Source: an uncultured Haemophilus sp.
Lineage (GTDB): Bacteria; Pseudomonadota; Gammaproteobacteria; Enterobacterales; Pasteurellaceae
Reading direction: 5' to 3' (one strand)
NCBI RefSeq assembly: GCF_902466845.1
Contig: NZ_CABQSN010000001.1
Length of the DNA: 40,059 nt
Positions 25,886 through 37,843 of this stretch are shown in pieces (position 1 is the stretch's first letter; every line of letters starts with the position of its first letter). The position numbers and the translations under genes were made by a program. The notes under the pieces were generated by a model. The model did not search any database and was not told the DNA's origin. It saw only the letters and a program-made list of their open reading frames with translations.

Positions 25886-27253
25886 GTGAGCCTTTCTACC
25901 CTATGGCAAGATTGCTTATCACAACTACAAGATCAGGTTTCCCCGATGGATCTCAGCACGTGGTTACGCCCATTACAAGCGGATGTCATCTCGCAAGATC
26001 AAGTGGTGTTATATGCGTCCAATATGTTTGTAAAAAGCTGGGTGGAAAATCATTACTTGGCTCAAATTCATCAAATTTGCCAAGCCCTTGCTAAAAATCC
26101 AAATTTACAAATTATCGTAAAAGAAGGGGTAAAACCTGCTCCCAAAGCAGTTGAATCAGCCCCGAGTCAAACAGCTAATCATCAAGAAAGTGCGGTGAGT
26201 TTTCAGCAAGAGTCTGATGCACCAAGCAAATTTGAATCACACCTAAATCGTAAACATTTATTTGAAAACTTTGTTGAAGGTAAATCAAACCAACTCGCTC
26301 GTGCAGTAGGCCAAAAACTCGCCCTTGCACCTGGTGAACCAACGGCAAACCCATTCTTTTTATATGGTGGTACAGGTTTAGGTAAAACCCACTTATTACA
26401 CGCAATCGGTAACGGCATTTTAGCGAATAAACCGAATGCCCGCGTGCTTTATATCCATGCAAATAACTTTATGCAGCACATGGTAAAAGCAATGCGTGAT
26501 AATAAAATGGATCAATTCAAAAAATTCTATCGTTCTCTTGATGCATTATTAGTGGATGATATTCAATTCTTTGCAGAGAAAGAAAAAACACAAGAAGAAT
26601 TTTTCCATATTTTCAACAATTTATTTGAAACTGGCCGTCAAATTATTTTGACCTCTGACCGCTATCCAAAAGAAATTGAGAAAATTGAAGAACGCCTAAA
26701 ATCTCGTTTCGGTTGGGGTTTAACCACTGCGATTGAACCACCTGATTTAGAAACTCGTGTTGCGATTTTGCTGAAAAAAGCAGAAGAACATAATATGGAT
26801 CTGCCAGAAGAAGTGGCATTCTTTATCGCCCAACGCTTACGCACCAATGTTCGTGAATTAGAAGGCGCATTAAACCGTGTGAAAGCGATGCAAGACTTCA
26901 AAGGTGGTCACATTGATATTGATTTTGTCCGTGACACATTAAAAGATATTCTCGCCTTACAAGAACGTTTGGTAACCATTGAAAATATTCAGAAAGTCGT
27001 GGCAGAATACTATCGAATTAAAGTGGCGGATTTAAAATCAAAAAGCAGAGCAAGATCAGTCACTCGCCCACGCCAAGTTGCGATGGCGTTAGCAAAAGAA
27101 TTAACCAATAAAAGCTTACCGGAAATTGGCCGTGCCTTTGAACGCGACCATACGACAGTCTTAAATGCCTGCCGTGAAGTGCCCAAATTCCGTGAAAAAG
27201 ACAGCAGTATTCAAGAAGATTGGGCGAATTTAATTCGCACATTATCTGCATAA
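25886..27253 (+). CDS. dnaA: Chromosomal replication initiator DnaA
   Basis: [36 protein letters not shown] start. Confidence 0.97.
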
Positions 27254-35198: not shown

Positions 35199-36665
35199 AT
35201 GAATGTGTTAGGTTATGCACAAAAAATTGGGCAAGCCTTAATGGTACCTGTTGCTGTCTTACCAGCAGCAGCTGTACTGATGGGGATTGGTTATTGGCTT
35301 GACCCAGATGGCTGGGGAGCTAACAGTCAACTTGCTGCATTTTTAATTAAATCAGGCGGTGCTATCATCGATAACATGGGCCTGCTTTTTGCCGTTGGCG
35401 TTGCTTTCGGTTTATCTAAGGACAAACATGGTTCCGCTGCACTTTCAGGTTTAGTGGGTTACTATGTGGTAACCACTCTACTTTCACCTGGCAGTGTTGC
35501 TCAGCTACAACATATCGATATAAGTGAAGTGCCAGCTGCCTTCGGGAAAATCAATAACCAATTTATTGGGATTTTGATCGGGGTGATTTCGGCTGAACTT
35601 TATAACCGCTTCTATCAAGTAGAATTGCCAAAAGCGCTTTCCTTCTTTAGCGGAAAACGCCTTGTGCCAATCGTCGTTTCTTTTGTCATGATGTTCATCA
35701 GCTTCGTATTGCTTTACATCTGGCCATATATTTTCGGCGGTTTAGTGTCATTCGGTGAAAGCATTAAAGACTTAGGTGCTGTTGGTGCAGGCCTTTACGG
35801 TTTCTTCAACCGTTTACTCATTCCTGTTGGCTTACACCATGCATTGAACTCAGTATTCTGGTTTGACGTAGCAGGCATCAATGATATTCCAAACTTCTTA
35901 GGTGGTGCAAAATCACTTGCTGAAGGCACTGCAACGGTTGGTGTAACCGGTATGTATCAAGCAGGTTTCTTCCCTGTCATGATGTTCGGTTTACCGGGTG
36001 CCGCATTAGCGATTTATCTCAGCGCTAAACCAAGCCAAAGAACTAAAGTGGCATCAATCATGCTTGCAGGTGCGTTTGCCTCATTCTTCACTGGTATCAC
36101 TGAACCATTAGAATTCTCTTTCATGTTTGTTGCACCAGTGCTTTACTTCATCCACGCAGTATTAACTGGTATTTCTGTCTTTATCGCGGCAACAATGCAT
36201 TGGATCGCAGGCTTCGGTTTCAGTGCGGGTCTCGTGGATATGGTACTTTCATCACGCAACCCATTAGCCGTTGAATGGTATATGCTCATCGTACAAGGCT
36301 TAGTATTCTTCGTGATTTACTACGTCGTATTCCGTTTCGCAATCAAAACGTTCAACTTAAAAACATTAGGTCGTACAGAAGAAGCAGAAGAAACCACTGC
36401 AGCACAACCAGCAGCGAGCCAATCTCGCGAAGAAAGAGCGGTCAAATTTATTGATGCTTTAGGTGGTGCTGATAACTTCAAAAATATTGATGCTTGTATC
36501 ACTCGCTTACGTTTAAGCTTAGTGGACCAACACAAAATTAATGAAGAACAGCTTAAGTCTCTTGGTGCAAAAGGTATCGTGAAAATTGGTAACGATGGCT
36601 TACAAGTGGTTCTCGGCCCTGAAGCTGAACTTGTGGCAGAAGCCATGAAACAAAAAGTAAAATAA
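35199..36665 (+). CDS. nagE: PTS N-acetylglucosamine-type transporter EIICB (no fused EIIA)
   Basis: ALMVPVAVLP, GLHHALN, GITEP, EIIB cysteine motif DACITRLR; 488 aa. Confidence 0.87.
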   Translation: MNVLGYAQKIGQALMVPVAVLPAAAVLMGIGYWLDPDGWGANSQLAAFLIKSGGAIIDNMGLLFAVGVAFGLSKDKHGSAALSGLVGYYVVTTLLSPGSVAQLQHIDISEVPAAFGKINNQFIGILIGVISAELYNRFYQVELPKALSFFSGKRLVPIVVSFVMMFISFVLLYIWPYIFGGLVSFGESIKDLGAVGAGLYGFFNRLLIPVGLHHALNSVFWFDVAGINDIPNFLGGAKSLAEGTATVGVTGMYQAGFFPVMMFGLPGAALAIYLSAKPSQRTKVASIMLAGAFASFFTGITEPLEFSFMFVAPVLYFIHAVLTGISVFIAATMHWIAGFGFSAGLVDMVLSSRNPLAVEWYMLIVQGLVFFVIYYVVFRFAIKTFNLKTLGRTEEAEETTAAQPAASQSREERAVKFIDALGGADNFKNIDACITRLRLSLVDQHKINEEQLKSLGAKGIVKIGNDGLQVVLGPEAELVAEAMKQKVK

Positions 36666-36678
36666 AATACACTAAATG

Positions 36679-36712
36679 AAATGCCGACTCAGAAATGGGT
36701 CGGTATTTTTTT
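36679..36712 (+). terminator. Intrinsic terminator of nagE
   Basis: AAATGCCGACTCA-GAAA-TGGGTCGGTATTTTTTT. Confidence 0.85.
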
Positions 36713-36810
36713 GCCAAAAATAAAGTAAAAAATGACCGCACTTTAGCTGATAATTTCTCGTTCGAAGTGAGTTAAATGAAAGTTTGAAAATTGAAGATTG
36801 TTTTGAAGGG

Positions 36811-37015
36811 TGGTGGAACTAAGCAGAATTGGTCTTAACAGCAAGTGGCTTACTGCATCGCATCCCTGCGGGATTTCTACCTAGCCCACCATAGATTTAA
36901 AGCATCTCTGGGGTTCCAGTCTGCGATATAAAATTAAAAGATTAAGAATCTTTTAAAAGCCACTTATATATTCAGGAGACCAATCCTGACTTCCAAACAA
37001 ACAACGTTGAAAGGC
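36811..37015 (-). ncRNA. Candidate structured non-coding RNA of unknown family
   Basis: Own sigma70 promoter, no ORF over about 15 codons, several nested helices (see findings); both ends are inferred. Confidence 0.62.
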
Positions 37016-37021
37016 AGTGGT

Positions 37022-37050
37022 ATGATAGAAGTCTTCCGCAATTTTGTCAA
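37022..37050 (-). promoter_or_regulatory. Near-consensus sigma70 promoter with no downstream CDS
   Basis: TTGACA (37050-37045), 17 nt spacer, TATCAT (37027-37022). Confidence 0.8.
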
Positions 37051-37140
37051 TTAAGATATTGCACTAAAAGAAGTATTTTTTCGCTTTTCGTATAAAAATT
37101 AACAAAGGCATTTCAACTATCACATCAATGTAACAAAAAC

Positions 37141-37172
37141 AAAATAACCGTCTTATTAAAGACGGTTATTTT
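37141..37172 (-). terminator. Intrinsic terminator of crp
   Basis: AAAATAACCGTCTT-ATTA-AAGACGGTTATTTT perfect inverted repeat. Confidence 0.85.
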
Positions 37173-37174
37173 TG

Positions 37175-37843
37175 CTATCGAGTGCCGTAAACCACAATGG
37201 TTTTACCGTGCGCATGAATTAGATTTTGATCTTCCAGCATCTTAATTATTCGCCCTACGGTCTCACGTGAACAGCCCACCATTTGACCAATTTCCTGACG
37301 AGTAATTTTAATCTGCATACCATCAGGATGAGTCATGGCTTCAGGTTGTTTTGCTAGATGCATAAGCGCCTGAGCAATACGGCCTGCCACATCTAAAAAG
37401 GCCAAGTTAGTCACTTGTCGCGATGTATTTTGCAAGCGTTTTGATAACTGAGCAGTAAGGAACATTAAAATTTCAGGATTAATTTGAATCAGCTGACGAT
37501 ATTTTTTATAGGAAATTTCCGCAATTTCACAAGGCGTTTTCGTTTTCACCCAAGCAGAACGTTTCGAACCTTCGTCAAATAAACCCGCCTCACCAAAAAA
37601 TTGTCCGGCACCTAAATAAGATAAAATCATCTCTTTGCCTTCATCATCTTTCGATGAAACCATCACGGTTCCTTTAATTAAGAAATATAAAATATTGGCA
37701 TCTTCACCCGCATGAATTAAGGTCGATTTTGCTGGATATTTATGTAAATGACAGTGAGTAAGGAACCAATCCAGAGCAGGATCGCGCTGCTGATCATCGT
37801 CCTGCGGCTTTTGTTCTTCTAGTAATTCTACATCTTCTGACAT
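37175..37843 (-). CDS. crp: cAMP receptor protein
   Basis: [44 protein letters not shown]. Confidence 0.98.

Follow-up and report, generated by a model that had tools for sequence, protein, structure and literature searches.

A chromosomal RNA gene beside crp in Haemophilus and related genera is probably an orphaned C4/IsrK-type module of phage immunity

We analysed a stretch of 40,059 nucleotides (nt) from an uncultured Haemophilus sp. (contig NZ_CABQSN010000001.1; hereafter the window), in which an RNA gene had been predicted on the minus strand just past crp. crp (37175-37843, minus strand) flanks this RNA element on one side, with a UPF0270 gene and a slmA-like gene beyond it, and a convergent phosphotransferase system (PTS) EIICB gene (nagE-like; 35199-36665, plus strand) flanks it on the other. 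A terminator hairpin (37172-37141; 14 bp with a T-rich tail) separates crp from the element. The original prediction described a stand-alone, structured, conserved and non-coding minus-strand RNA gene with its own promoter and no protein gene downstream, and in these respects it was right. It also took the RNA to match no known family, and here our results differ. The element belongs to the C4/IsrK class as a diverged member scoring below threshold, and it is orphaned, core-genomic, single-copy and very strongly conserved. It is an unusual variant of a class of phage immunity RNA and not a new kind of RNA.

The promoter was found where it had been predicted, just past the crp terminator. It is of the sigma-70 type (37022..37050, minus strand) and consists of TTGACA at 37050-37045, a 17-nt spacer and TATCAT at 37027-37022, which agree with the consensus at 11 of 12 positions. 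A consensus scan of 36500-37400 gave one promoter-like site; shuffled sequences averaged 2.4. A regular expression for TTGACA-N17-TAnnnT found a match upstream of the element in 41 of 41 relatives' loci parsed, in the forms TTGACA-N17-TATCAT, TATGAT or TATTAT, so that the promoter is kept in all of them. Transcription is predicted to start near 37015.

C4 and IsrK are RNAs of phages and prophages, and their known job is the control of a linked antirepressor; in phage P1, the sites a1 and b1 lie upstream of c4. At gathering thresholds, Rfam gave no match at the element. An E-value scan of 36600-37250 gave two adjoining matches on the minus strand, one to IsrK (RF01394; 37015-36931, 24.5 bits, E 0.0038) and one to the C4 antisense RNA (RF01695; 36896-36806, 35.1 bits, E 6.3e-5). 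These sub-threshold matches, and related loci that hold the same module with C4 above its cut-off followed by antirepressor genes, contradict the claim that the RNA resembles nothing known. That claim did hold for several families, as no bacterial-type 6S, tRNA, tmRNA, signal recognition particle or RNase P RNA was matched at E up to 10 in this interval, the sole RNase P row being archaeal (8.2 bits, plus strand). The suggestion of a protein-binding or mimic RNA specific to Pasteurellaceae stands in part: the tRNA-like character of C4 as an RNase P substrate is a form of mimicry and the orphan subtype is confined to the family, but a 6S-like or protein-sequestering mimic is unsupported and the RNA class is wider.

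From the predicted start onward (all features on the minus strand), the RNA has the three-hairpin layout of IsrK. A 5' leader hairpin (36990..37013; CCUUUCAA...UUGGAAG), present in the minimum-energy fold, matches the first hairpin of the Rfam IsrK model. Next comes a1 (36973..36988; CAGGAUUGGUCUCCUG), a local 5-bp hairpin that presents UUGGUC, carries the same motif as the IsrK consensus CGGGaUUGGcAuCCCG and can alternatively pair, through 36988-36977, with a' at 36835-36824. It is followed by b1 (36957..36965; AAGUGGCUU), which is complementary to the b' loop at 36851-36843, and by a 10-bp hairpin of A/U pairs only (36956-36934) with UUUU at 36933-36930, the counterpart of the IsrK terminator. 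The 5' hairpin, the GGAUUGG hairpin and the hairpin with its U tract all occur in the minimum-energy fold, and the terminator role of the last is a prediction. This hairpin is retained with a different sequence in other genera, where a UUUUAU tract follows it, and is probably a weak terminator or attenuator. No ORF (open reading frame) lies downstream, and the element lacks the antirepressor operon into which IsrK reads through.

A variable linker (36892..36929) with two small helices, CUGG-AACC-CCAG and AGAU-N7-AUCU, joins this leader to a C4-type tRNA-like antisense RNA (36806..36896), to which the Rfam match, the RNAalifold consensus and the minimum-energy fold all point. The long closing stem P1 (36891-36875 with 36828-36811) surrounds two hairpins, P2 (36874-36862) and P3 (36856-36838); b' (36851-36843) is the loop of P3 and a' (36835-36824) is a linker. 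In the Rfam alignment the long stem pairs GGUGGGCUAGGUAG... with ...CUGCUUAGUUCCACC, a stem missing from the fold first proposed, and AGACCAA is left as an unpaired linker and AAGCCACUU as a hairpin loop. GGU (36890-36888) stands at the edge of P1 with a predicted RNase P site just 5' of it, and the C4 tail CACCACCC occupies 36815-36808. The copies a1 (36988-36977) and b1 (36965-36957) lie upstream on the same precursor, and no complement of a' or b' occurs in the 140 nt 3' of C4. The trailer beyond (36687..36805), which reaches the hairpin of the convergent PTS gene's terminator, is unconserved and not alignable between genera, and contains no a2/b2 copies and no conserved ORF. The statement that no ORF exceeds about 15 codons was roughly right, but a 33-codon frame with a TTG start (36844-36743) begins inside the RNA. 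The trailer also carries AAGTGCGGT (36743-36735), which we take to be the core of a Haemophilus-type DNA uptake signal and which lies outside the RNA module.

The minus-strand RNA from 37015 to 36805 (211 nt) folds at -62.8 kcal/mol (z = -3.15; 1 of 200 shuffles was as good), compared with z = -1.49 for the plus-strand fold of the same interval. Each helix named in the original prediction was also found: the outer helix CAGGAUUGGUCU (36988-36977) with AGACCAAUUCUG (36835-36824), including one G-U pair; the second helix AAGUGGCUU (36965-36957) with AAGCCACUU (36851-36843); the 10-bp hairpin at 36956-36934; and the AUCCC-GCA-GGGAU hairpin. The AUCGCA/UGCGAU closing helix is present too, but at most 5 of its 6 pairs can form alongside the GGGAU hairpin because one U is common to both. 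As for the nested arrangement, its complementary segments are real and under selection, but the minimum-energy fold is one of C4-type local hairpins, and the RNAalifold consensus from an alignment of relatives picks the same C4 fold. Forcing both long helices, a1:a' and b1:b', gives -62.3 kcal/mol. Because the closed and C4 folds differ by 0.5 kcal/mol, the precursor is predicted to be bistable. The outer and second helices are the a/a' and b/b' recognition pairs rather than the scaffold of a new fold.

Pair statistics from an alignment of 28 distinct sequences bear on these helices unequally. The a1:a' helix is paired in 99.4% of alignment cells, a figure that says little on its own because 10 of its 12 pairs never vary. 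The b1:b' helix is paired in 96.4% of cells, and a U-A pair has become C-G in six rows from genus group g39 (Rodentibacter). Only two b types occur, each with the matching b' (51 of 77 further loci parsed by regular expression), so that this change counts as one independent compensatory event. In the 5' leader hairpin, 3 of 7 pairs change on both sides (79.6% of cells paired). The 17 pairs of P1 are formed in 100% of cells, with 4 varying on one side only, and the small helices of the linker are paired in 75-77%.

Related loci reveal what the element lacks. One weak BLAST match (L030, genome G074) has two complete tandem modules at 1180-2760, about 1.1 kb apart, with matches to IsrK (39.4 and 35.3 bits), AaHKsRNA82 (42.5 and 47.2) and C4 (52.2 and 65.6); behind each module, an ORF encodes an antirepressor domain, AntA or Bro-N. 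The canonical order is promoter, 5' hairpin, a1, b1, G+C-rich terminator, spacer, C4 (b' loop, a' linker), a2, b2 and the antirepressor ATG, with 5-6 nt between C4 and a2 and an overlap of b2 with the Shine-Dalgarno sequence. In a scripted comparison of 35 loci, complements of a' and b' were found both upstream and downstream of C4 in 8 of 8 canonical modules parsed and upstream only in 4 of 4 orphan loci (one per genus group). No antirepressor ORF lies downstream of the element at the orphan loci (g1, g5, g8 and g39), and no ORF of at least 60 codons 3' of C4 is common to them. By this comparison, the window contains the leader and C4 without a2, b2 and the antirepressor gene, and hence an orphan module.

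The Pasteurellaceae prophage modules (such as L030, L113, L114 and L115) resemble the orphan in promoter spacing, 5' hairpin, C4 fold and a type (GGAUUGGUCU / AAGACCAAUU). What they have and the orphan lacks is a terminator rich in G+C, a spacer like AaHKsRNA82, the sites a2 and b2, and a gene for an antirepressor of the AntA, Bro-N or KilA-N type; all of their b types differ from the orphan's AAGUGGCUU. More widely, modules of prophages and of viral contigs have the a type AUUGGUCU in combination with other b, b' and b2 sequences, which always match one another. C4 matches above the Rfam cut-off occur in 105 of 151 family genomes and 40 of 50 genera, and none occurs in the window's genome. 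The two L030 modules are themselves heteroimmune, with different a/b sequences, each self-consistent, and different antirepressor domains (Bro-N and AntA). Genome G030 has 27 Rfam C4 matches, including six identical modules (b' CCCGCUUUU) on six contigs (L123, L128-L132) that look like a proliferating element or a multi-copy prophage.

The element shares several features with the C4 of phages P1 and P7 (RF01695, immI). In both, a long closing stem with GGU at its 5' edge encloses two hairpins, the tail is CACC, and the linker a', which is unpaired, and the loop b' are complementary to short sites elsewhere on the same transcript; both are transcribed from a strong upstream promoter as part of a longer precursor. 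In contrast to that C4, it scores below the cut-off, has no a2/b2 and no downstream icd/ant, lies outside any prophage, and is a far more conserved, single-copy, syntenic element of the core chromosome in four genus groups. Its neighbours are non-phage genes (crp, the UPF0270 and slmA-like genes and the PTS EIICB gene), with no AntQ-type gene near it, so it does not occupy a prophage or immunity region as a C4 gene would. As with IsrK (RF01394) of Salmonella prophage Gifsy-1, the leader has three hairpins with GGAUUGG in the second and can pair with a downstream part of its own read-through transcript to give two structures. It differs from that IsrK in its score (24.5 bits against a 50-bit cut-off), its A/U-only terminator hairpin and the lack of orf45/anrP.

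The element is conserved well beyond the window. BLAST found it in 33 of 151 family genomes, over 36994-36805. An exact 14-mer from a' was found in 103 of 236 family genomes, a single time in each; a reversed control pattern occurs in none. By genus group the counts are 53/56 (g1), 20/20 (g5), 12/12 (g39) and 11/14 (g8), and the element is single-copy in 96 of 102 genomes of these four genera. The three g1 genomes without the 14-mer are assemblies 64-88% complete, while the three g8 (Aggregatibacter group) genomes without the element (G097, G229 and G231) are complete. G097 carries a prophage module of the orphan's a type in place of the orphan. An exact 25-mer identified 77 loci among Genome Taxonomy Database (GTDB) representatives (one genome per species), all 77 in Haemophilus (including parainfluenzae, influenzae and haemolyticus), Aggregatibacter, Rodentibacter, other Pasteurellaceae or uncultured bacteria. 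The g1, g5 and g8 loci have the element immediately 3' of crp and co-oriented with it, next to a convergent neighbour that varies; the g39 copy adjoins an AccA-like ORF (N-terminal sequence read by eye, no family search), with no crp match within the locus.

The a' 14-mer has seven further matches, each in a different genome, and six of these genomes belong to genera outside the four. Prophage modules account for four of the matches, chance for two (L111 and L112, no C4) and a CRISPR spacer for one. The spacer lies in an array at about 1440-1560 of L093 (G073:C150; repeat roughly GGAAACACCTCCACGTGTGTGGAGAAAAT) and corresponds to a prophage-type C4 gene with this a type, over the 3' half of that gene. 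A match of this kind indicates that the host CRISPR system targeted a phage at its C4 gene.

Sequence identity is concentrated in the C4 core: 87/88 positions between g1 and g5, 84/88 between g1 and g8 and 80/88 between g1 and g39 (91-99%). The a1-b1 region is identical at 26/33 positions including gaps, and the linker at 39/69 (g1-g5) and 31/67 (g1-g8). Four-fold degenerate sites of crp are identical at 23/70 (g1-g5) and 25/68 (g1-g8), or 33-37%. The difference between the core and these sites indicates strong purifying selection on the RNA, which is not a decaying remnant.

RNA libraries contain the element. In three RNA-seq runs of one study (X10-X12), contigs with 100% identity cover 36797-37002, 36780-37002 and 36758-37002, at word depths of 33.1, 29.8 and 13.8; two neighbouring contigs over the 3' end of the nagE-like gene have word depths of 2.6 and 3.8. 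In a fourth run, from a second study, a contig covers 36670-37001. This cover comes from assembled Logan contigs and speaks to presence only, not to strand, true ends or level. The contigs have a common upstream boundary, which is a weak hint only. X10-X12 gave no contig over crp or the promoter region, which is no evidence of absence. Run X14, from a metagenomic RNA library, has a second contig (record 8) that matches the C4 core alone (36816-36896) and has flanks resembling a Rodentibacter-type linker, so that a relative's copy is seemingly present in that library.

We conclude that the locus is probably an orphan, chromosomally fixed immI-type module, an IsrK leader joined to C4, without its a2/b2 sites and antirepressor gene. 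The RNA that RNase P releases from the C4 precursor is about 77 nt long. Published work on C4 describes RNase P cleavage at a GGW motif (PMC5320573), pairing of a' and b' with target sites, occlusion of the ribosome-binding site by b' and repression of the antirepressor (PMC5320573, PMC8198154), as part of the immI immunity function (PMC8198154). For IsrK, the account of isrK-orf45-anrP in PMC4825925 covers a short isoform and a read-through one, the alternative structures, and how the short form activates translation of the antirepressor. By analogy, we postulate that a constitutive-looking sigma-70 promoter would yield a precursor of about 210 nt or more with two nearly isoenergetic conformations. 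In the closed form, a1 and b1 of the leader would pair with a' and b' of C4, as in the nested fold first proposed. In the open form, the 3' half would fold as a tRNA-like C4 with a 17-bp stem around two hairpins, leaving a' and b' exposed. If RNase P cuts 5' of GGU (36890), as in phage P1/P7 C4, an RNA of about 80 nt could be released and could bind mRNAs that have a/b sites. The leader might act as the anti-antisense partner of C4 in cis or in trans, as short IsrK does in Salmonella. The predicted bistability parallels the two structures of the isrK read-through transcript described in PMC4825925.

Several results weigh against this interpretation. Both Rfam scores are below their cut-offs (C4, 35.1 against 45 bits; IsrK, 24.5 against 50), other orphan copies fare little differently (L009, L017 and L028 score 35.1, 37.9 and 34.1 bits for C4), and a search of the window's own genome with RF01695 gave no match. 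The hairpin between leader and C4 has an uncertain role as a terminator because it is A/U-only. All 88 nt of the core are near-invariant, loops included, beyond the needs of antisense seeds and a stem. The RNA contigs give no strand or RNA ends, could reflect DNA carry-over and break off at 37002/37001, leaving 13 nt to the predicted start. Searches for a cognate target came back empty. In the window's own genome, the only a-N-b site is the element itself. Among the 236 family genomes there is no a2/b2 site of the orphan's b type: the pattern hits are variants of the element's own a1/b1, a single a1/b1 leader of prophage type (in G034) and chance matches, those inspected falling in coding genes (e.g., an mfd-like gene in L050). 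A pattern for the a2 context gave 17 sites in 11 of the 236 genomes; 13 of the sites, spread over 7 genomes, are true modules, and no module has the orphan b type.

The same was true of wider collections. GTDB representative genomes and JGI metagenome contigs yielded 0 cognate a2/b2 sites, and none of the 118 matches listed for a loose pattern in viral contigs stands behind a C4. A 27-mer of the orphan C4 core has no exact match in the viral contigs, and blastn of the element against 50,697 phage records gave no match. The orphan a type was met in 12 viral contigs whose G+C content is like that of Pasteurellaceae, always combined with a different b type. Only three viral contigs (L282, L330 and L331, from IMG/VR) have a near-cognate site. 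Each contains a complete module (a2 AUUGGUCU, b2 CUAAGUGGAG, b' CCACUUAG) with a BRO-like ORF, in sequence that resembles Escherichia and Enterobacter phages. Their a and b types (AUUGGUCU; CUAAGUGG) come closer to those of the orphan than any others found, which suggests an immI specificity class that is both old and widely spread.

Scans for host targets were similarly unproductive. A k-mer scan gave chance-looking matches only, and RNAduplex against 2449 candidate translation-start regions gave no outlier (the top value was -29.4, compared with -29.9 for the cognate leader). A wobble-aware scan for a plus b found 410 sites, including roughly 85 matches to the element itself on both strands (counted from the printed rows), compared with 110-463 in controls. 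Prophage modules of the orphan a type are present in 1 of 102 genomes of orphan-bearing genera and in 10 of 134 others. This pattern is a lead only, because related genomes are not independent; 4 of the 10 sites in other genera are chance or non-module sites, and the single case in an orphan-bearing genus, G097, is without the orphan element.

We can speak of the target in tentative terms only. A host mRNA is a reasonable candidate, another role for the leader:C4 pair is equally so, and the mRNA of a phage antirepressor of matching specificity, serving host-borne immunity or the taming of prophages, is possible if slightly less favoured. In the last case, the element would serve as an 'RNA vaccine' in the chromosome, silencing the antirepressors of a single immI specificity class and so controlling which temperate phages establish or induce; the distribution of prophage modules described above is a weak hint in this direction. 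In the first case, it would be a riboregulator with two stable folds, gated by RNase P and rewired to a target in the host. We speculate, though we hold it less likely than not, that an ancestor common to Haemophilus, Aggregatibacter and Rodentibacter captured the pair a single time, and that the pair lost its antirepressor and has for very long been kept as a near-invariant host gene.

Either way, the RNA half of the module persists alone in the core genome of several genera, with carriers that include Haemophilus influenzae, H. parainfluenzae and Aggregatibacter actinomycetemcomitans. It lends itself well to asking what use a host has for a domesticated phage antisense RNA, and the system is simple and testable: a single promoter, two pairs of complementary seeds and a predicted cut by RNase P. 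The Rfam cut-offs for C4 and IsrK miss this conserved subfamily, so that the genome annotations of these pathogens are without this gene.

It is also conceivable, though we think it unlikely, that the effector is the short IsrK-like leader (about 80 nt, from the start to the hairpin and U tract), acting in trans on host mRNAs as an Hfq-type small RNA (sRNA), with C4 as its sponge or antidote. The full IsrK layout is kept (5' hairpin, GGAUUGG hairpin, hairpin with U tract), and a1 and b1 are conserved as well as a' and b'. In addition, short Salmonella IsrK is described in PMC4825925 as a stable trans-acting RNA, and the 'isrK' of Histophilus somni (HS81, which may be an orphan or a prophage copy) is given in PMC10204968 as highly expressed and recovered in an Hfq pull-down. 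However, the C4 half is the most conserved (87/88, against 26/33 for a1-b1 including gaps), and the RNA contigs pass unbroken through the hairpin into C4. The hairpin, moreover, is without any G-C pair, and the host-target scans found no target for such an effector.

The near-invariance of the 88-nt core across four genera, including the P2 loop and those stem positions that could covary freely, invites another explanation, namely that the C4-derived tRNA-like RNA was co-opted for a non-antisense role such as binding RNase P or another protein, close to the mimic originally proposed. The stems of canonical C4 RNAs, by contrast, vary freely. The acceptor-stem-like form, with GGU at its 5' end and a CACC tail, would suit such a role, as would the failure to find an antisense target in the window's own genome, family and GTDB genomes, metagenome contigs and host scans. 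What makes us regard this as improbable is that a1 and b1 are retained and that b1:b' has undergone a compensatory change, which argue that base-pairing through a' and b' is still selected. Nor is there evidence for any protein partner, and Rfam gave no match to 6S, tRNA or tmRNA.

That the locus is an inert remnant of an old prophage immunity region awaiting decay is highly improbable and already strongly disfavoured. The target sites and antirepressor gene are gone, the Rfam scores are below those of intact modules, and three complete Aggregatibacter-group genomes are without the element. Nevertheless, a C4 core 91-99% identical beside crp four-fold sites saturated at 33-37%, a promoter intact in all copies, single-copy presence in 96 of 102 genomes of four genera, the compensatory b1:b' change and the RNA-library cover all argue otherwise. 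We discount almost entirely the idea that the element belongs to the crp transcript, as its 3' untranslated region or as a cis-regulatory segment. In three genus groups it does follow crp directly and on the same strand, but a 14-bp terminator hairpin with a T-rich tail intervenes, the element has its own conserved promoter, the g39 copy adjoins an AccA-like ORF with no crp match in the locus, and X10-X12 have a contig over the element and none over crp.

The literature offers some parallels to the orphan module. The Group 1 C4-like sRNAs of Acinetobacter baumannii AB5075, as presented in PMC5320573, are chromosomal, highly expressed and apparently processed at GGW, with phage or bacterial targets proposed. 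They belong to a family with many copies in a single genome and a' regions that vary, whereas the orphan has one copy per genome, an invariant a', a linked IsrK-like leader and conservation across genera. In Histophilus somni, the 'isrK' sRNA is recorded as 211 nt long, expressed and Hfq-associated (PMC3262788, PMC10204968); it may or may not be of the orphan type. A search of main texts on C4 antisense RNA in Pasteurellaceae or Haemophilus, and on isrK in Pasteurellaceae, gave no description of a crp-linked element, and the main text of an Aggregatibacter sRNA paper has no mention of AaHKsRNA82, crp or phage. Dual RNA-seq of nontypeable H. influenzae listed 18 candidate sRNAs, Hinc1-18, in the coordinates of strain Hi176, as given in PMC4659474, and one of them may be the orphan RNA.

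Elsewhere in the window, the sole Rfam match at gathering threshold is AsdA, an antisense RNA of the dnaA mRNA, at 26363-26443 on the minus strand (55.9 bits against a cut-off of 52).

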